Below are positions 3,197 through 33,649 of a DNA stretch of 33,649 nucleotides, one piece after another. Every line of letters begins with the position of its first letter. The stretch's first letter is position 1. Where the stretch lies: NCBI RefSeq assembly GCF_003334255.1, contig NZ_QOWU01000057.1; one strand, written 5' to 3'. The notes under the pieces were generated by a model. That model saw only the letters and a program-made list of their open reading frames with translations, ran no database searches and was not told the DNA's origin. This DNA is from Escherichia coli. GTDB taxonomy: Bacteria > Pseudomonadota > Gammaproteobacteria > Enterobacterales > Enterobacteriaceae. The position numbers and the translations under genes were made by a program.

Positions 3197-3262
3197 ATCA
3201 AACACCCTTAACTTACCTTTGAGCGCCAATTTAAGCGGGGTAAGTGAAGGGAGTGTGAAGAA

Positions 3263-16974: not shown

Positions 16975-18378
16975 GTGTCACTTTCGCTTTGGCAGCAGTG
17001 TCTTGCCCGATTGCAGGATGAGTTACCAGCCACAGAATTCAGTATGTGGATACGCCCATTGCAGGCGGAACTGAGCGATAACACGCTGGCCCTGTACGCG
17101 CCAAACCGTTTTGTCCTCGATTGGGTACGGGACAAGTACCTTAATAATATCAATGGACTGCTAACCAGTTTCTGCGGAGCGGATGCCCCACAGCTGCGTT
17201 TTGAAGTCGGCACCAAACCGGTGACGCAAACGCCACAAGCGGCAGTGACGAGCAACGTCGCGGCCCCTGCACAGGTGGCGCAAACGCAGCCGCAACGTGC
17301 TGCGCCTTCTACGCGCTCAGGTTGGGATAACGTCCCGGCCCCGGCAGAACCGACCTATCGTTCTAACGTAAACGTCAAACACACGTTTGATAACTTCGTT
17401 GAAGGTAAATCTAACCAACTGGCGCGCGCGGCGGCTCGCCAGGTGGCGGATAACCCTGGCGGTGCCTATAACCCGTTGTTCCTTTATGGCGGCACGGGTC
17501 TGGGTAAAACTCACCTGCTGCATGCGGTGGGTAACGGCATTATGGCGCGCAAGCCGAATGCCAAAGTGGTTTATATGCACTCCGAGCGCTTTGTTCAGGA
17601 CATGGTTAAAGCCCTGCAAAACAACGCGATCGAAGAGTTTAAACGCTACTACCGTTCCGTAGATGCACTGCTGATCGACGATATTCAGTTTTTTGCTAAT
17701 AAAGAACGATCTCAGGAAGAGTTTTTCCACACCTTCAACGCCCTGCTGGAAGGTAATCAACAGATCATTCTCACCTCGGATCGCTATCCGAAAGAGATCA
17801 ACGGCGTTGAGGATCGTTTGAAATCCCGCTTCGGTTGGGGACTGACTGTGGCGATCGAACCGCCAGAGCTGGAAACCCGTGTGGCGATCCTGATGAAAAA
17901 GGCCGACGAAAACGACATTCGTTTGCCGGGCGAAGTGGCGTTCTTTATCGCCAAGCGTCTACGATCTAACGTACGTGAGCTGGAAGGGGCGCTGAACCGC
18001 GTCATTGCCAATGCCAACTTTACCGGACGGGCGATCACCATCGACTTCGTGCGTGAGGCGCTGCGCGACTTGCTGGCATTGCAGGAAAAACTGGTCACCA
18101 TCGACAATATTCAGAAGACGGTGGCGGAGTACTACAAGATCAAAGTCGCGGATCTCCTTTCCAAGCGTCGATCCCGCTCGGTGGCGCGTCCGCGCCAGAT
18201 GGCGATGGCGCTGGCGAAAGAGCTGACTAACCACAGTCTGCCGGAGATTGGCGATGCGTTTGGTGGCCGTGACCACACGACGGTGCTTCATGCCTGCCGT
18301 AAGATCGAGCAGTTGCGTGAAGAGAGCCACGATATCAAAGAAGATTTTTCAAATTTAATCAGAACATTGTCATCGTAA
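16975..18378 (+). CDS. dnaA: DnaA, chromosomal replication initiator protein (467 aa)
   Basis: ORF 16963..18378 trimmed to the GTG at 16975 ([17 protein letters not shown]…); Walker [12 protein letters not shown]; C-terminal DnaA-box-binding domain. Confidence 0.97.
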
Positions 18379-23020: not shown

Positions 23021-23049
23021 GCCTGATGCGCTACGCTTATCAGGCCTAC
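23021..23049. repeat. REP (repetitive extragenic palindromic) element, first of a BIME-like pair downstream of gyrB
   Basis: GCCTGATGCGCTACGCTTATCAGGCCTAC is an imperfect palindrome matching the E. coli REP family consensus as I recall it. Confidence 0.65.
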
Positions 23050-23084
23050 GAAAATCTTGCAATGTATTGAATTTTCATGATTTT

Positions 23085-27709: not shown

Positions 27710-28854
27710 AAATCACCAAAATTACCACGTATCGTTTACCTCCCCGCTGGATGTTCCTGAAAATTGAAACCGATGAAGGCGTGGTCGGTTGGGGCGAGCC
27801 CGTGATCGAAGGCCGCGCCCGTACGGTGGAAGCGGCAGTTCACGAGCTGGGTGACTATTTGATTGGTCAGGATCCATCGCGCATCAATGACTTATGGCAA
27901 GTGATGTATCGCGCCGGATTCTATCGCGGCGGTCCGATCCTGATGAGCGCCATCGCCGGGATTGACCAGGCGTTATGGGATATCAAAGGTAAAGTGCTGA
28001 ATGCGCCGGTCTGGCAACTGATGGGCGGCCTGGTTCGCGACAAAATTAAAGCCTACAGTTGGGTTGGCGGCGATCGTCCGGCGGATGTTATCGACGGCAT
28101 TAAAACGCTACGCGAAATCGGCTTCGATACCTTCAAACTGAACGGTTGTGAAGAACTGGGGCTAATTGATAACTCCCGCGCGGTAGATGCGGCGGTTAAC
28201 ACCGTGGCACAAATTCGTGAAGCTTTTGGCAATCAGATTGAGTTTGGTCTTGATTTCCACGGTCGCGTCAGCGCGCCGATGGCGAAAGTGCTGATTAAAG
28301 AACTGGAGCCGTATCGCCCGCTGTTTATTGAGGAGCCGGTGCTGGCGGAACAAGCCGAATACTACCCGAAACTGGCGGCACAAACGCATATTCCACTGGC
28401 GGCGGGTGAACGCATGTTCTCACGCTTCGATTTTAAACGCGTGCTGGAGGCAGGTGGTATTTCGATTCTGCAACCGGATCTCTCCCACGCGGGCGGTATT
28501 ACCGAATGCTACAAAATCGCCGGAATGGCAGAAGCCTATGACGTGACCCTTGCGCCGCACTGTCCGCTCGGACCGATTGCACTGGCGGCTTGCCTGCATA
28601 TCGACTTTGTTTCCTATAACGCCGTACTTCAGGAACAAAGTATGGGAATTCATTACAACAAAGGCGCGGAGTTACTCGACTTTGTGAAAAACAAAGAAGA
28701 CTTCAGCATGGTCGGCGGCTTCTTTAAACCGTTAACGAAACCGGGCTTAGGCGTGGAAATCGACGAAGCTAAAGTGATTGAGTTCAGTAAAAATGCCCCG
28801 GACTGGCGTAATCCGCTCTGGCGTCATGAAGATAACAGCGTAGCAGAGTGGTAA
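27706..28854 (+). CDS. dgoD: DgoD, D-galactonate dehydratase (enolase superfamily) (382 aa)
   Basis: Start overlaps dgoA stop (ATGA); 382 aa; enolase-superfamily sequence. Confidence 0.95.
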
Positions 28855-28973
28855 TTCCTGCCACGTAAGCCCCTCATCGGGCACTAAAACAGCAATACAA
28901 AAATATAACCCTCTGTAAATTACAGGGCATGGTGAGCGGCTTCGCTATGCCCAAAATCTGGAGAAAGCTCGCT

Positions 28974-30266
28974 ATGGATATTCCCGTTAATGCAGCAAAG
29001 CCGGGGCGTCGGCGTTATCTGACGCTGGTGATGATCTTTATTACGGTAGTCATTTGTTATGTCGACCGCGCCAACCTGGCCGTGGCTTCCGCCCATATTC
29101 AGGAAGAGTTCGGCATTACCAAAGCGGAAATGGGCTATGTATTTTCGGCCTTCGCCTGGCTTTATACGCTATGTCAGATCCCCGGCGGTTGGTTTTTAGA
29201 TCGCGTAGGTTCTCGCGTGACTTATTTTATTGCGATATTTGGCTGGTCAGTGGCGACTTTATTCCAGGGCTTTGCCACGGGCTTAATGTCATTAATTGGT
29301 CTGCGCGCGATAACCGGTATTTTCGAAGCGCCTGCTTTCCCGACCAATAACCGGATGGTGACCAGCTGGTTCCCGGAACATGAACGCGCTTCTGCCGTTG
29401 GTTTTTATACGTCTGGTCAGTTTGTCGGTCTGGCGTTTCTGACGCCGCTGCTGATCTGGATTCAGGAGATGTTGAGCTGGCACTGGGTGTTCATTGTCAC
29501 TGGTGGTATCGGCATTATCTGGTCGCTGATTTGGTTTAAGGTTTATCAGCCGCCGCGCCTGACCAAAGGTATCAGCAAAGCTGAACTGGATTACATTCGT
29601 GATGGCGGCGGTCTGGTGGATGGTGATGCGCCGGTGAAGAAAGAGGCGCGTCAGCCGTTAACAGCCAAAGACTGGAAACTGGTGTTCCATCGTAAACTGA
29701 TCGGCGTTTATCTTGGGCAATTTGCGGTGGCTTCTACACTGTGGTTTTTCTTAACCTGGTTCCCGAACTATTTAACCCAGGAAAAAGGAATCACGGCGCT
29801 GAAAGCAGGCTTTATGACCACGGTGCCATTCCTCGCGGCGTTTGTCGGCGTCCTGCTCTCTGGCTGGGTAGCGGATCTGCTGGTACGTAAGGGCTTTTCA
29901 CTGGGCTTTGCGCGTAAAACGCCGATTATCTGCGGCTTGCTGATCTCCACCTGCATTATGGGCGCTAACTACACTAACGATCCGATGATGATTATGTGCC
30001 TGATGGCGCTGGCATTCTTCGGTAACGGTTTTGCTTCGATTACCTGGTCGCTGGTTTCTTCTCTGGCACCGATGCGCCTGATTGGTTTAACCGGCGGCGT
30101 GTTTAACTTCGCCGGTGGTCTGGGCGGCATCACCGTTCCGCTGGTGGTGGGGTACCTGGCGCAGGGTTACGGTTTCGCACCTGCACTGGTTTATATCTCC
30201 GCCGTCGCGTTGATTGGCGCGCTCTCTTATATCCTGCTGGTGGGCGATGTGAAGCGCGTTGGCTAA
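28974..30266 (+). CDS. dgoT: DgoT, D-galactonate:H+ symporter, MFS (430 aa)
   Basis: ORF 28929..30266 trimmed to ATG at 28974 ([22 protein letters not shown]…), GGAGA Shine-Dalgarno upstream; polytopic MFS transporter. Confidence 0.9.
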
Positions 30267-31327
30267 TCCTTCAACTGTGGAATATGTGCCACACCACTGC
30301 GCATAATCCACTTTCTTAAAGCCGGTGCGGTCAGGCATCGGCTTTTTACTATCTTGCCGAAGAGTTTTAAACGCAGTTTGCGGGTGGCGCGCCAGTAAGC
30401 GGTATTGAGCTTCTCTGGCTGCTTCAGTAACACCGAACGCAGAATGTCTGTGCTATCCAGCGCATAGCTAATCCCCTCCAGCGAGCTGGCGCTGATAAAT
30501 CCCGCCGCTTCACCAATCAGAAAGGCGTTGTCCTTACCGCAGACAAAATCCTGCCAGCGCGAGGGAAACAGCACCGTGCATTTTTCGCTTTTCACCGTCT
30601 TACCAAACTGGAACTGAAAGGCGCTCATTTTCTCTTTCAGCGTCGTGAAACGCGTCTGACCGTCTTTCATTGGATAGGCACCGCCAAAGATAAAATAACC
30701 GTCTTTGCTGATACTCCATGAATAACAGTTAGTTATCGAATTATCAAAGATGCAGGAGTAGAACGGCACCGGATGTTTCTCCGCGAACCACTGCTGGATA
30801 GCGACATATTTACGGATTTGATGATCCGGGTAGAGATGTCGCCGCACCATCGAGTTTGCGCCATCGGCACCGACCAGATAGCGGGCGGTAATATGTTGCT
30901 CCCAGCCGTCTGCACGAAAAATGACATGCCATTTATCATCCTCACGCCAGATTTTTCGGCACAGGCTGTCGTGATAAACCTCAACGCTGGCGGGGATCAG
31001 CGATTTCATCCACAAGTCGAAAGCATGGCGATTAATATTGATATAGCTTCGCTGGTAGTTACGCGTGAGCGATGCGGCGACGTCGACGGTTTTGACGCTG
31101 AAAATCTGCGGATTAGCGATCACATCGACAGGAAGCGTCAGCCCATCGCGAATAAAAGATCGCTGCGCGTCCGGTGCCAGCAGACCGCCGCAGGGTTTGC
31201 TGAAACCTTCAGTACCACACTGGTGCTTTTTATCCAGCGCGATCACCTGCATTTTGCCTGCTAACTTTCGTGCCAACGCCGATCCTGCCGGGCCGAGGCC
31301 AATAATCGCCACGTCGAAATGTTCCAT
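30263..31327 (-). CDS. cbrA: CbrA (YidS), FAD-dependent oxidoreductase, geranylgeranyl-reductase-like (354 aa)
   Basis: ORF trimmed to ATG at 31327 ([22 protein letters not shown]… = Rossmann GxGxxG FAD-binding motif); stop codon overlaps the dgoT stop. Confidence 0.85.
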
Positions 31328-31394
31328 CTTTTCACTCACATTCATCACGATGGCAAAAGACTATTGTCTGAAAGTGAAGTCCTTGTGAAGTATG

Positions 31395-32642
31395 ATGGCG
31401 GGACCCGTTTTGTATCAGGACCGCGCCATGAAACAGATAACCTTTGCTCCCCGTAATCACCTGCTCACCAATACCAATACCTGGACGCCCGACAGCCAGT
31501 GGCTGGTATTTGACGTGCGTCCTTCTGGCGCGTCGTTTACCGGCGAGACCATTGAGCGTGTGAATATCCATACCGGCGAGGTCGAGGTTATCTATCGCGC
31601 GTCACAGGGCGCACACGTCGGCGTGGTGACCGTTCATCCGAAGTCAGAGAAATATGTTTTCATCCACGGCCCGGAAAATCCTGATGAAACATGGCATTAC
31701 GACTTCCATCATCGGCGCGGAGTGATTGTTGAAGGCGGCAAGATGAGTAACCTTGATGCGATGGATATTACCGCGCCGTATACGCCAGGAGTGCTGCGCG
31801 GCGGCAGCCATGTGCATGTCTTTAGCCCGAACGGTGAAAGGGTGAGCTTTACCTATAACGACCATGTAATGCATGAACTCGATCCGGCGCTGGATTTGCG
31901 AAACGTCGGTGTTGCTGCGCCGTTTGGCCCGGTCAACGTACAAAAGCAGCATCCGCGTGAATACAGCGGTAGCCACTGGTGCGTGCTGGTGAGCAAAACC
32001 ACGCCCACGCCACAGCCTGGCAGTGATGAAATCAATCGTGCTTATGAAGAAGGATGGGTAGGAAATCACGCGCTGGCATTTATTGGCGACACACTTTCGC
32101 CAAAGGGCGAGAAAGTGCCGGAGCTGTTTATCGTTGAGTTACCGCAAGATGAAGCTGGCTGGAAAGCGGCAGGTGATGCGCCGTTAAGCGGAACGGAAAC
32201 AACCCTGCCCGCGCCACCGCGTGGCGTCGTGCAGCGACGTTTAACCTTTACCCACCATCGGGCTTATCCGGGGTTAGTCAACGTCCCGCGCCACTGGGTG
32301 CGCTGTAATCCGCAGGGTACACAAATCGCGTTTTTAATGCGAGATGATAACGGCATTGTGCAACTGTGGCTTATCTCGCCACAGGGCGGCGAGCCGCGCC
32401 AGTTAACCCATAACAAAACGGATATTCAGTCTGCATTTAACTGGCATCCGTCAGGAGAATGGTTGGGCTTTGTGCTGGATAATCGAATTGCTTGTGCCCA
32501 TGCGCAAAGCGGCGAGGTTGAGTATTTAACCGAACACCACGCCAATTCACCTTCTGCGGACGCCGTGGTCTTCTCGCCGGATGGTCAGTGGCTGGCGTGG
32601 ATGGAAGGCGGCCAGCTGTGGATCACCGAAACTGATCGCTAA
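31395..32642 (+). CDS. yidR: YidR, uncharacterised protein, DUF3748 / TolB-like beta-propeller (about 415 aa; start could be ATG 31392, 31395 or 31428)
   Basis: 416-aa ORF diverging from cbrA; WD40/TolB-like repeats (…VFSPDGQWLAW…); exact start not resolvable by eye. Confidence 0.8.
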   Translation: MAGPVLYQDRAMKQITFAPRNHLLTNTNTWTPDSQWLVFDVRPSGASFTGETIERVNIHTGEVEVIYRASQGAHVGVVTVHPKSEKYVFIHGPENPDETWHYDFHHRRGVIVEGGKMSNLDAMDITAPYTPGVLRGGSHVHVFSPNGERVSFTYNDHVMHELDPALDLRNVGVAAPFGPVNVQKQHPREYSGSHWCVLVSKTTPTPQPGSDEINRAYEEGWVGNHALAFIGDTLSPKGEKVPELFIVELPQDEAGWKAAGDAPLSGTETTLPAPPRGVVQRRLTFTHHRAYPGLVNVPRHWVRCNPQGTQIAFLMRDDNGIVQLWLISPQGGEPRQLTHNKTDIQSAFNWHPSGEWLGFVLDNRIACAHAQSGEVEYLTEHHANSPSADAVVFSPDGQWLAWMEGGQLWITETDR

Positions 32643-32643
32643 A

Positions 32644-32976
32644 TCAGTTATCAGGCATTCTGGCCGGTGGAATAACCGCATTGGTGGCTTGCGCGTTGGC
32701 TTCGCTTTTTTCAACGCGCGAGCGCACCGAGCTGTCTTTGCGGAACACATCCCACGGCAGTAAAAGCGTGTCCATCACAGCGGTAAACGGCATATCGAGA
32801 ATCGCCAGCGACTTAGTGCCCCAGTTGGTTTCATCGTCGCCAATCATGGTTGCGCTGGCGCGGGTGCCGGGATACGTTCCTTCTTTCCCTCCGGTATGGG
32901 ACATCACGCTGGAGCATCCTCCGAGTAATGTCATTCCGCTGCATATCATGAACGCTAACAACACATTTCTTATCAT
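32644..32976 (-). CDS. yidQ: YidQ, DUF1375-family outer-membrane lipoprotein (110 aa)
   Basis: ORF 32644..33051 trimmed to ATG at 32976 (MIRNVLLAFMICSGMTLLGGCSS… = signal peptide with lipobox LGGC); convergent with yidR, 1-nt gap. Confidence 0.8.
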   Translation of the reverse strand: MIRNVLLAFMICSGMTLLGGCSSVMSHTGGKEGTYPGTRASATMIGDDETNWGTKSLAILDMPFTAVMDTLLLPWDVFRKDSSVRSRVEKSEANAQATNAVIPPARMPDN

Positions 32977-33149
32977 AATAAATTCATCTGTTGATCGTGG
33001 GTGTTGGCCTGATGAGTTATAGCGATCCCTTGCTGAAAATAACATCATCATTACGTCGCACTGTGGCGGCTATCGCACTTTAACGTTTCGTGCTGCCCCC
33101 TCAGTCTATGCAATAGACCATAAACTGCAAAAAAAGTCCGCTGATAAGG

Positions 33150-33178
33150 CTTGAAAAGTTCATTTCCAGACCCATTTT
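33150..33178 (+). promoter_or_regulatory. Sigma-32 (heat-shock) promoter of ibpA
   Basis: -35 CTTGAAA (33150..33156) and -10 CCCATTTT (33171..33178) with 14-bp spacer, matching the sigma-32 consensus CTTGAAA-N13-15-CCCCATNT; about 100 nt 5' UTR follows (ibpA UTR is a known ROSE-type RNA thermometer). Confidence 0.65.
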
Positions 33179-33280
33179 TACATCGTAGCCGATGAGGACG
33201 CGCCTGATGGGTGTTCTGGCTACCTGACCTGTCCATTGTGGAAGGTCTTACATTCTCGCTGATTTCAGGAGCTATTGATT

Positions 33281-33577
33281 ATGCGTAACTTTGATTTATC
33301 CCCGCTTTACCGTTCTGCTATTGGATTTGACCGTTTGTTTAACCACTTAGAAAACAACCAGAGCCAGAGTAATGGCGGCTACCCTCCGTATAACGTTGAA
33401 CTGGTAGACGAAAACCATTACCGCATTGCTATCGCTGTGGCTGGTTTTGCTGAGAGCGAACTGGAAATTACCGCCCAGGATAATCTGCTGGTGGTGAAAG
33501 GTGCTCACGCCGACGAACAAAAAGAGCGCACCTATCTGTACCAGGGCATCGCTGAACGCAACTTTGAACGCAGGTAA
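33281..33577 (+). pseudogene. ibpA: ibpA (small heat-shock protein IbpA) truncated after codon 97 of 137 by IS1; fused reading frame adds Arg and stops at TAA 33575..33577 inside the IS1 end
   Basis: N-terminus [68 protein letters not shown]… matches IbpA up to …GIAERNFER, then the sequence switches to the IS1 terminus GGTAATGACTCC at 33573. Confidence 0.85.
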
Positions 33578-33649
33578 TGACTCCAACTTATTGATAGTGT
33601 TTTATGTTCAGATAATGCCCGATGACTTTGTCATGCAGCTCCACCGATT
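33573..33649 (-). mobile_element. insB: IS1 right-end fragment in inverted orientation (terminal inverted repeat at 33573..33595, insB 3' end on - strand 33588..33649); element body lies to the right of the window
   Basis: Exact reverse complement of window positions 1..77; begins GGTAATGACTCCAACTTATTGAT (IS1 terminal repeat as I recall it). Confidence 0.85.

Follow-up and report, generated by a model that had tools for sequence, protein, structure and literature searches.

The closest described relatives of the gene ends considered here are the convergent overlaps surveyed by Lillo & Krakauer in 2007, among which 4-bp overlaps with the sequence CTAA, TTAA, CTAG or TTAG constitute the modal class (PMC2174442). 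The number of convergent overlapping pairs in Escherichia coli has been put at 58 (PMC2174442) and at 75 (PMC4161906). A rho-independent terminator is located within the coding sequence of the partner for one gene in 19 of the 58 pairs and for both genes in 2 of the 58 (PMC2174442). A related group comprises the convergent excludons of strain MG1655, which are called when RNA-seq coverage overlaps in at least half of 58 transcriptomes (PMC12288877). Table 1 of that RNA-seq-based study contains 165 convergent excludons, 146 of them with predicted overlapping terminators, and names both dgoT/cbrA and yidR/yidQ (PMC12288877). Antisense read-through that is suppressed by Rho forms another class (Adams et al. 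2021, PMC7815308). Furthermore, Wang et al. (bioRxiv 10.1101/2022.10.23.513370) described a collision model that depends on a stem-loop and has been put forward for many convergent pairs of E. coli.

We analyzed both gene pairs in a window of 33,649 nucleotides from E. coli (contig NZ_QOWU01000057.1), which is the whole stretch of DNA under study. The names of all four genes agree with the RefSeq annotation of K-12 MG1655. The features at the two junctions are as follows.

28929-30266, plus strand: dgoT, galactonate MFS transporter and last gene of dgoRKADT; TAA stop at 30264-30266 (ORF list, translation, RefSeq annotation).
30263-31327, minus strand: cbrA, 354 aa from the RefSeq start; its TAG stop is the reverse complement of 30263-30265 (ORF list, RefSeq annotation).
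30263-30266, no strand assigned: CTAA tetramer holding the dgoT and cbrA stop codons; 4-nt overlap of the coding sequences.
31374-31389, minus strand: exact cre-tag (TTCACnnnnnnTTCAC / TTCACAAGGACTTCAC) upstream of cbrA.
31428-32642, plus strand: yidR, DUF3748 protein, 404 aa from the RefSeq start; TAA stop at 32640-32642 (ORF list, RefSeq annotation).
32643, no strand assigned: the one base that separates the stops of yidR and yidQ.
32644-32976, minus strand: yidQ, YceK/YidQ family lipoprotein, 110 aa; its TGA stop is the reverse complement of 32644-32646 (ORF list, RefSeq annotation).

An earlier note on this DNA had stated that the dgoT and cbrA stop codons share nucleotides and that those of yidR and yidQ are separated by 1 nt, and the coordinates bear out both statements. 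Positions 30264-30265 are common to the TAA of dgoT and the TAG of cbrA. Base 30263 has a double role: it is the third position of the last dgoT codon (GGC, Gly), and on the opposite strand its complement is the third position of the cbrA stop. With facing 3′ ends, two real genes with full-length homologues across genera, and a CTAA tetramer, dgoT/cbrA belongs to the 4-bp class of Lillo & Krakauer (PMC2174442) and exhibits no essential difference from it. In contrast, yidR/yidQ (TAA-a-TCA) falls outside this class because its stops are separated by a spacer rather than overlapping, and a TGA on the opposite strand (TCA) cannot make a 4-bp overlap. The exact cre-tag upstream of cbrA is consistent with control of this gene by CreBC, and another exact copy is present upstream of cbrB (3244-3259, minus strand).

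Junctions this tight account for two of the four native convergent junctions in the window, the other two having gaps of 45 and 53 nt. The E. coli genome has an estimated 600 or so convergent junctions, and hence about one in ten overlaps. Judged from the published counts and the four junctions in the window, the ends of dgoT/cbrA and yidR/yidQ are no more than chance would provide, and they represent an ordinary, common and already catalogued arrangement. Their geometry is of a textbook class, and the published map of overlapping convergent transcripts already includes both pairs. A base-composition profile around the junctions gave no sign of foreign DNA, and no known RNA family was recognized at either one in an Rfam scan.

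The earlier note had also argued that there is no room for terminators at these junctions. It is correct that the intergenic space is zero, but the argument fails because a terminator can be located inside the coding sequence of the partner gene. Two hairpins are relevant to the dgoT side.

30277-30311, plus strand: first hairpin of the dgoT 3′ UTR, dG about -14 kcal/mol, tail UUUCUUAA; 11 nt past the stop and within cbrA codons.
30318-30353, plus strand: intrinsic-terminator-like element of the dgo operon, with an 11-bp stem AAAGCCGGUGC/GCAUCGGCUUU, a 6-nt loop and a U-rich tail UUUUUACUAUC.

The hairpin of the second element spans 30318-30345 and sits in cbrA codons ~328-337, among the last ~30 codons of that gene. 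Its stem base lies 51-52 nt after the dgoT stop, which is clear of a terminating ribosome, and a UUUUU run at 30343-30347 is followed by ACUAUCUU. The element folds with a dG of -18.4 on the plus strand, compared with only -13.5 and no U-tract on the cbrA-sense strand. For the whole 84-nt dgoT 3′ UTR the folding z-score is -5.97, and none of 200 shuffled sequences was equally stable. As expected of an intrinsic terminator, a G+C-rich stem-loop directly followed by a U-tract is therefore present shortly past the last dgo stop codon. A scan of the whole window returned eight compact strong hairpins with U-rich tails, six of which are intergenic at gene ends; the other two are this element and a hairpin that sits just past the AsdA antisense RNA in dnaA. 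The element belongs with the hairpins located just past the ends of yidC, gyrB, yidA and adeP. A scan with standard promoter and terminator patterns found nothing at either junction and missed the 30318 hairpin, which was revealed by folding and by our own scan; the miss may be due to the extension of the stem into the U-run.

Among the genomes compared, the 30318 hairpin reaches its greatest strength exactly in those whose short cbrA tail directly meets dgoT (four at -17 to -18, and E. albertii at -13.6), and it ranges from about -4 to -15 in the others, a comparison that involves few, phylogenetically related genomes. In E. sp. E1V33 and E. whittamii the synonymous changes are confined to the loop, and the stem is also kept through a G.U to A-U change in E. 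albertii and through a C-G to U.G change in E. coli MRY15-131. Thus, cbrA codon choices keep the stem of the likely dgo terminator. The first hairpin (30277-30311) is also retained in other Escherichia. Part of the 30318 hairpin could nevertheless be a by-product of the CbrA protein sequence, because its U-tract reads AAAAGC on the cbrA strand and encodes a conserved Lys-Ser, and because the peptide SRC...APA is partly palindromic at the DNA level.

Neither the data of Adams et al. (PMC7815308), whose 3′-end list skips from genome position 3868543 to 3881679 and covers cells in LB or glucose, where dgo is repressed, nor the TERMITe supplements contain a 3′-end entry for dgoT or cbrA. The structure of the element is evident from folding, and we infer from it a function as the dgo terminator. 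If working, it would hold the dgo antisense overlap of cbrA to ~85 nt. The claim about terminators is thus doubtful for dgoT, where the predicted hairpin and U-tract lie within cbrA, and it stands for the 3′ sides of cbrA and yidQ. Downstream of the stops of these latter two genes, we found no structure beyond that of shuffled sequences (z of -0.4 and 0.0, respectively) and no intrinsic terminator.

The remaining direction, past the yidR stop, and the RNA made in the yidQ direction involve two further features.

32678-32732, plus strand: long hairpin past the yidR stop, inside yidQ codons and without a U-tract; Escherichia-specific, z of -3.0.
31617-32643, minus strand: RNA antisense to yidR in the yidQ direction, known from published duplexes, a Term-seq 3′ end and a Rho peak.

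The hairpin at 32678-32732 has lost strength in E. sp. E1V33 and E. whittamii, and other genera lack it. A different hairpin, GGUUUCCGUCA/UGACGGAAACC, occurs at the yidR 3′ end, where 91% of cells are paired across 25 non-Escherichia genomes. A covariation test on the same 25 genomes gave no signal above shuffle controls, and despite the high pairing we make no claim of selection on this hairpin at the RNA level.

The earlier note had proposed that the convergent transcripts overlap the partner gene. This overlap is real. For dgoT/cbrA it rests on the published excludon list together with the predicted terminator position, and for yidR/yidQ the list (PMC12288877) is joined by published evidence for RNA antisense to yidR. 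In the rows listed from Table S3 of PMC7373196, at least two p19-captured RNase III duplexes are antisense to yidR, at 32438-32459 and 32245-32266, which is 185-399 nt past the yidQ stop. The duplex reads in those rows are near the detection threshold (1.3-3.8 RPM), and no duplex for dgoT or cbrA is among them. Term-seq places a 3′ end at ~32161, or +483 from the yidQ stop (PMC7815308), which by our folding falls 7 nt after a hairpin at 32209-32168. Bicyclomycin-sensitive, and hence Rho-dependent, termination occurs at ~31617, near +1027 from the yidQ stop, and corresponds to genome position 3869087(+) with a score of 7.19 and a p value of 1.4e-17 (PMC7815308, supplementary file 2). Reads across this site drop from 200 to 17 without bicyclomycin and from 260 to 159 with it (PMC7815308). 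Upstream of the Rho peak, 80-nt windows within 31803-31684 have C/G ratios of 1.6-1.65, values reached by only 6.7% of all windows. Both bicyclomycin read-through and a C-rich, G-poor upstream region are thus found for antisense yidR, as for a Rho-dependent terminator. The RNA, which may start at the yidQ promoter or at an internal promoter and is presumably untranslated, has no known difference from the class described by Adams et al. (PMC7815308), in which it makes up a single row beside hundreds of comparable antisense entries.

Read along the minus strand, yidQ is followed by antisense yidR and then by cbrA, and the antisense RNA heads toward cbrA, much as in a noncontiguous operon, where genes of one orientation are transcribed together across a gene on the opposite strand. 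However, under ordinary conditions Rho halts this RNA ~290 nt before the cbrA start codon, with 17 of 200 reads continuing. We do not assign yidQ-yidR-cbrA to the noncontiguous operons, given that in LB the RNA ends before cbrA and that bicyclomycin is needed for coverage to extend further. PMC12288877 lists three noncontiguous operons for E. coli, and this trio is not one of them.

The two junctions have different histories among related genomes. The stops of yidQ and yidR lie 0 or 1 nt apart in all but one of 31 genomes, which represent about ten genera, and this abutment is kept while the stop codons and the spacer base turn over. The dgoT/cbrA junction is labile, being a 4-nt overlap, a 40-nt overlap or a 62-nt spacer, and its geometry is polymorphic even within E. 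coli. In E. coli DG343-1, a change of the last dgoT codon from GGC to GGA turns the cbrA TAG into TAT and extends the overlap to 40 nt. Natural E. coli strains carry this synonymous change, by which CbrA gains 12 residues. The shared tetramer is TTAA in Citrobacter, Enterobacter and Phytobacter relatives, and in many Citrobacter genomes dgoT is absent beside cbrA. The 62-nt spacer of Buttiauxella contains a hairpin. Citrobacter-like genomes have a cbrA ORF that extends through such a GC-rich hairpin as far as the dgoT stop, and in Escherichia the 42-nt hairpin segment is missing. The core of CbrA is conserved to around residue 349, beyond which the tail varies.

We consider it likely that these are two ordinary, maximally compacted convergent gene ends and that each transcription unit ends within the coding sequence of its partner. 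RNA polymerase would pass the dgoT stop and make ~85 nt of RNA antisense to cbrA, and this 3′ RNA would fold into two hairpins, the second of which (30318-30345) would serve together with its U-tract as an intrinsic terminator. In the yidQ direction, ribosomes would leave at the stop codon, and the untranslated, C-rich RNA antisense to yidR would be ended by Rho ~1 kb on. This RNA would have a hairpin-protected 3′ end at +483 and would pair with yidR mRNA, with RNase III cutting the duplex. Published data show the Rho termination, the +483 end and the RNase III-cut duplex. In the cbrA direction, which has no terminator hairpin, base composition suggests that Rho-dependent termination may occur in antisense dgoT, and in the yidR direction the hairpin inside yidQ has no U-tract. 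The geometry itself could have originated through the loss of spacer DNA and the drift of stop codons. A zero-spacer state would be protected from additional shrinkage, since every deletion would remove a stop codon, and under the known bacterial deletion bias it could persist without selection for regulation. Mutual interference between the partners is possible, but it is needed to explain none of these observations.

The overlaps might instead have been selected as functional excludons, with polymerase collision and RNase III cleavage of the sense/antisense duplex allowing transcription of either gene to depress its partner. Induction of dgo would then lower cbrA, or CreBC-activated cbrA would lower dgoT, and yidQ would lower yidR. 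Both pairs are in the published excludome, and the class as a whole shows higher synteny and less single-cell co-expression than other neighbors (PMC12288877). The RNase III duplexes, the ~1 kb antisense RNA over yidR, and the persistence of the yidQ/yidR abutment despite changing stops and spacer base are also in line with such a role. However, mutually exclusive expression of either pair is only putative, and at zero intergenic distance any 3′ UTR satisfies the ExcludonFinder coverage criterion almost automatically. Moreover, the duplex reads are scarce in the listed rows, Rho-terminated antisense RNA past convergent genes is pervasive, with very many such rows in the Adams table (PMC7815308), and the dgoT/cbrA junction is unconserved. 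If the embedded terminator works, dgo transcripts also cover only a short stretch of cbrA. A literature search for dgoR or galactonate transcriptomes returned none reporting cbrA. We regard selected excludons as unlikely. It is a long shot that the yidQ/yidR abutment is a selected antisense switch whose reach is set by Rho and through which RNase III tunes yidR. At low Rho, transcription would read on into cbrA and create a conditional noncontiguous operon of yidQ and the CreBC-controlled, envelope-related cbrA.

Another proposal is that a stem-loop at the boundary positions head-on polymerases, which trailing polymerases then release; the 3′ ends of the two strands would be defined and would overlap, with neither Rho nor a canonical terminator required. 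Palindromic hairpins do occur at or beside both junctions in most genera, including the GC-rich cbrA-tail hairpin of Citrobacter and GGUUUCCGUCA/UGACGGAAACC at the yidR end. In E. coli, however, the boundary hairpins are lost (dgoT/cbrA) or weakened (yidR end), and the yidQ-direction RNA passes the boundary and runs 480-1030 nt in a Rho-dependent manner, which argues against a bidirectional terminator of this kind. The yidR-end hairpin, whose covariation is no higher than in shuffle controls, also speaks against it. Such collisions also require strong simultaneous transcription of both genes, but dgo is ordinarily kept repressed, and cultures in LB or glucose yielded no recorded dgoT or cbrA 3′ end (PMC7815308). 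Collision-type termination is highly improbable here. One might also ask whether an ORF end in each pair has been mis-called such that the genes do not truly abut, given that RefSeq and the longest ORFs place the start codons differently and that the CbrA tail beyond about residue 349 is unconserved. Nevertheless, the stops are unambiguous and the uncertainty is limited to the starts. Full-length homologues of all four proteins end at the same places across genera, which effectively refutes a mis-annotated stop in either pair and makes an artefact next to inconceivable.

Ordinary compaction gives this locus little discovery value but a modest use as a worked example. The lack of an intergenic spacer is not the lack of a terminator, since the likely terminator of the dgo operon lies in the cbrA coding sequence. 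One synonymous dgoT change removes the cbrA stop, and an abutting state can last long in evolution, possibly for neutral reasons. If interference proved true, galactonate use would be linked to a CreBC-controlled envelope function, although nothing yet points there. Perhaps the 0-1 nt abutment of yidQ and yidR across about ten genera reflects selection that a neutral account ignores.

The region dgoRKADT-cbrA-yidR-yidQ-ibpA holds two pairs of convergent genes, and both are best accounted for as ordinary, maximally compacted convergent gene ends. Positions 28800-33572 are 100% identical to E. coli K-12 MG1655, and checks of the ORFs and translations bore out all the coordinates that the earlier note had assigned to the two junctions, which comprise the following features.

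28929..30266, plus strand: dgoT ORF, with stop codon TAA at 30264-30266
30263-30265, minus strand: cbrA stop codon TAG (reverse complement)
32640-32642, plus strand: yidR stop codon TAA
32644-32646, minus strand: yidQ stop codon TGA (reverse complement)

The plus strand reads CTAA at 30263-30266, such that the dgoT and cbrA coding sequences overlap by 4 nt and two bases are common to both stop codons. A single spacer base (32643) lies between the yidR and yidQ stops. There are four native convergent junctions within the window, with gaps of 53, 45, -4, and +1 nt.

The E. coli genome has roughly 600 convergent junctions in total, and tight ends like those described here are not unusual. Lillo and Krakauer describe exactly the 4-nt overlap of the dgoT/cbrA type and count 58 convergent overlaps in E. 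coli (PMC2174442), and Huvet and Stumpf give 75 (PMC4161906). Furthermore, yidQ-yidR and cbrA-dgoT are both named among the 165 convergent excludons (convergent pairs with overlapping transcripts) of MG1655 in the ExcludonFinder list, which is defined by RNA-seq coverage that overlaps in at least half of 58 transcriptomes (PMC12288877). Thus, the central inference of the earlier note, that the convergent transcripts must overlap as antisense RNA, is already in the literature, and the finding is known both as a class and by name. The overlap is real, given the listing of both pairs and the measured RNA antisense to yidR.

At such junctions, termination would be shifted into the partner gene, by an embedded intrinsic terminator for dgo and by Rho for the others, and the 3′ UTRs would consequently overlap the coding region of the partner. 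The zero-spacer state may persist neutrally because deletions, which are favored in bacterial genomes, would destroy a stop codon, and insertions are rare.

It had also been claimed that there is no room for terminators. This is wrong for dgoT, for which a terminator composed of a hairpin and a U-tract is predicted within the cbrA coding sequence. Among the 58 convergent overlaps in E. coli, 21 have at least one gene with a predicted rho-independent terminator within the partner coding sequence (PMC2174442). The 84 nt past the dgoT stop fold with a free energy of -33.9 kcal/mol (z -5.97), and 0 of 200 shuffles are as stable. The hairpins found past the two plus-strand stops are listed here.

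30277-30311, plus strand: first hairpin past the dgoT stop, predicted by folding
30318-30345, plus strand: second hairpin past the dgoT stop, with an 11-bp stem (AAAGCCGGUGC / GCAUCGGCUUU), a 6-nt loop, and a U-rich tail
32678-32732, plus strand: hairpin past the yidR stop (z -3.0), with no U-tract and not conserved

The second hairpin starts 52 nt past the dgoT stop, clear of the terminating ribosome, and is embedded in cbrA codons ~328-337. Its tail consists of a UUUUU run (30343-30347) and then ACUAUCUU. This palindrome folds at -18.4 kcal/mol on the dgoT strand versus -13.5 kcal/mol on the cbrA-sense strand, because G·U pairs become A·C mismatches on the latter, where the palindrome is followed by UUUAAGAAAG and no U-tract. 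Across the whole window, a scan found a U-rich tail on only eight hairpins that are compact (no longer than 33 nt) and at least as stable as -13.9 kcal/mol. Six of them are intergenic and located at gene ends, among them the yidC terminator, with a 3′ end mapped by Adams et al. (PMC7815308), and hairpins just past gyrB, yidA, and adeP. The remaining two are one just downstream of the Rfam AsdA match inside dnaA and the 30318-30345 hairpin itself. The strand asymmetry and the specificity of this class support a putative terminator role for the latter. A simple pattern-based terminator scan of the window did not report the 30318-30345 hairpin, we think because the scan extends the stem into the U-run.

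Of 5426 complete E. coli genomes, 5386 carry the 131-nt junction segment, always under both dgoT and cbrA. In strain DG343-1, a synonymous GGC to GGA change in the last dgoT codon (equivalent to window position 30263) turns the cbrA TAG into TAT and abolishes the cbrA stop. CbrA of this strain has 366 residues in RefSeq, and the coding overlap grows from 4 to 40 nt, a longer-CbrA state that is common to E. albertii and E. whittamii. Strain MRY15-131 has a stem C-G pair changed to U·G, and its tail gains one U. Strain 00_3230 carries a 76-nt deletion (window 30269-30344) from 2 nt past the dgoT stop into the U-run, which takes both 3′-UTR hairpins and the last ~26 cbrA codons, and its cbrA is annotated as a pseudogene.

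For comparison, 54 loci that encode relatives of CbrA were retrieved, and the four genes were mapped within them. The dgoT/cbrA junction is labile across these genomes. CbrA has a conserved core up to about residue 349, followed by a tail that varies between genomes. Buttiauxella has a 62-nt spacer containing a hairpin, and many Citrobacter genomes have no dgoT beside cbrA. The cbrA gene is 11-14 codons longer in Citrobacter amalonaticus, C. youngae, C. sedlakii, Enterobacter sp. ENT03, and Phytobacter massiliensis, where the added stretch corresponds to a G+C-rich hairpin, AGCCCGCC...GGCGGGCT, and the ORF ends on the dgoT stop as TTAA. This element, seen just 3′ of the conserved CbrA core in Citrobacter, Enterobacter, and Phytobacter (loci L011, L013, L017, L018, L035, and others), resembles an intergenic terminator or REP-like stem that was later absorbed into the ORF. 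Escherichia lacks this ~42-nt hairpin segment. In E. albertii, E. whittamii, and Pseudocitrobacter vendiensis, cbrA extends 12 codons antisense into dgoT, giving the 40-nt overlap.

The 30318-30345 hairpin reaches its greatest stability in genomes with a short cbrA tail abutting dgoT (four at -17 to -18 kcal/mol, and E. albertii at -13.6 kcal/mol), and its equivalents in other genomes range from about -4 to -15 kcal/mol. The stem is kept within Escherichia. Relative to E. coli, E. sp. E1V33 and E. whittamii have three synonymous changes, all in the hairpin loop, and in E. albertii a G·U pair becomes A-U. The E. coli-labelled strain E69, with no adjacent dgoT, encodes the same peptide with a broken stem. 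As read from a few related genomes, these patterns would be consistent with selective maintenance of a terminator at junctions that lack another hairpin. However, the DNA that encodes the peptide SRC...APA is partly palindromic in its own right.

For the minus-strand genes, folding compared with shuffles revealed no RNA structure above chance past the cbrA and yidQ stops (z -0.4 and 0.0). Published sites were placed by sequence (window = 3900704 - genome position), with the yidC terminator as a check. Table S3 of Huang et al. includes sense/antisense duplexes of 22 nt that were cut by RNase III and carry 2-nt overhangs, at window 32438-32459 and 32245-32266 (PMC7373196), 185-399 nt beyond the yidQ stop. 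The Term-seq data of Adams et al. contain a 3′ end, labelled "antisense to yidR", at genome 3868543(+), or window ~32161 (PMC7815308). It lies 483 nt beyond the yidQ stop, and a hairpin at 32209-32168 precedes it by 7 nt. Their Rho termination region peaks at genome 3869087(+), or window ~31617, where reads fall from 200 to 17 without bicyclomycin and from 260 to 159 with it (score 7.19, p 1.4e-17; PMC7815308). This peak is 1027 nt beyond the yidQ stop, and C-rich, G-poor stretches are located just upstream (31803-31684). Together, the duplexes, the 3′ end, and the bicyclomycin data indicate that most of yidR is covered by an antisense RNA that pairs with the yidR mRNA and is terminated by Rho. 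This antisense RNA could start at the yidQ promoter or inside yidQ or yidR. Transcripts in the cbrA direction are probably Rho-terminated likewise, judging by base composition, with more C than G at 29942-29863, 29662-29583, and 29542-29423.

These data also bear on two other explanations. The overlaps, chiefly that of yidQ/yidR, might be regulatory in the manner proposed for excludons, and both the published listing and the duplexes could be read this way. However, the yidR duplex reads are near threshold, the Adams et al. table is full of such Rho-terminated antisense RNAs (PMC7815308), and an ExcludonFinder call follows almost automatically from a zero spacer, such that nothing specific to this locus supports regulation. 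Alternatively, the abutting ends might act as collision-type bidirectional terminators, but this does not fit the yidQ direction, in which RNA runs on for a kilobase and terminates Rho-dependently. Compacted gene ends remain the best account.

A 1-nt gap separates yidQ and yidR in 24 genomes, and the gap is 0 nt in 6 more, spanning Escherichia, Citrobacter, Pseudocitrobacter, Buttiauxella, Enterobacter, Phytobacter, Kosakonia, and others, with YidQ identity down to 55%. The stop codon of each gene may be TAA, TAG, or TGA, and neither the spacer base nor the final residues are constant. A true spacer (114 nt) occurs in Intestinirhabdus alone. In genera other than Escherichia, the eleven codons at the end of yidR (GFRQLWVTETG) form GGUUUCCGUCA-N8-UGACGGAAACC, 10-40 nt past the yidQ stop. 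Across 25 non-Escherichia genomes, 91% of cells are paired and the changes are one-sided wobbles. Covariation in these 25 genomes is not above shuffle controls (35/500 and 50/500 shuffles reach the observed values), and therefore protein conservation alone may explain this hairpin. Escherichia YidR lacks four codons (~32600-32625; ...AWMEGGQLW... versus ...AWMEDVxGFRQLW... in other genera), and one hairpin arm is gone as a result. Different, self-consistent replacement hairpins are present in E. albertii (GGTCAG/CTGACC) and E. sp. E1V33 (GGCCAG/CTGGCC), and the K-12 yidR end has a weak hairpin only.

The genes yidQ and cbrA are co-oriented, and transcription along the minus strand would pass through yidQ, then antisense through the intervening plus-strand gene yidR, and then cbrA. 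Rho-dependent termination of the antisense-yidR RNA falls ~290 nt short of the cbrA start codon (31617-31327), and coverage goes on toward cbrA when Rho is inhibited by bicyclomycin. It is tempting to speculate that this layout resembles a noncontiguous operon normally held off by Rho. The only two exact cre-tag matches (TTCACnnnnnnTTCAC) in the window are upstream of cbrA (31374-31389, minus strand) and cbrB (3244-3259, minus strand), as expected for CreBC-regulated genes.

Several other observations concern the wider window. AsdA antisense RNA (Rfam) matches within dnaA at 17485-17565 (minus strand), and a longer AsdA transcript could end at the strong hairpin with a U-rich tail located 39-70 nt farther downstream (17415-17446, minus strand). 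Other Rfam matches are a ROSE_2 RNA thermometer upstream of ibpA (33215-33287, plus strand) and the sRNA ES036 (CssrF) at 23042-23084 (minus strand), just downstream of gyrB on the opposite strand. Positions 1-77 and 33573-33649 are the same IS1 terminal sequence in inverted orientation, and thus the 33.5-kb segment cbrB-dnaA-gyrB-dgo operon-ibpA' is bracketed by inverted IS1 ends. The right copy disrupts ibpA, MG1655 identity ends at 33572, and strains matching the whole query carry an IS1A-family element at the ibpA break.
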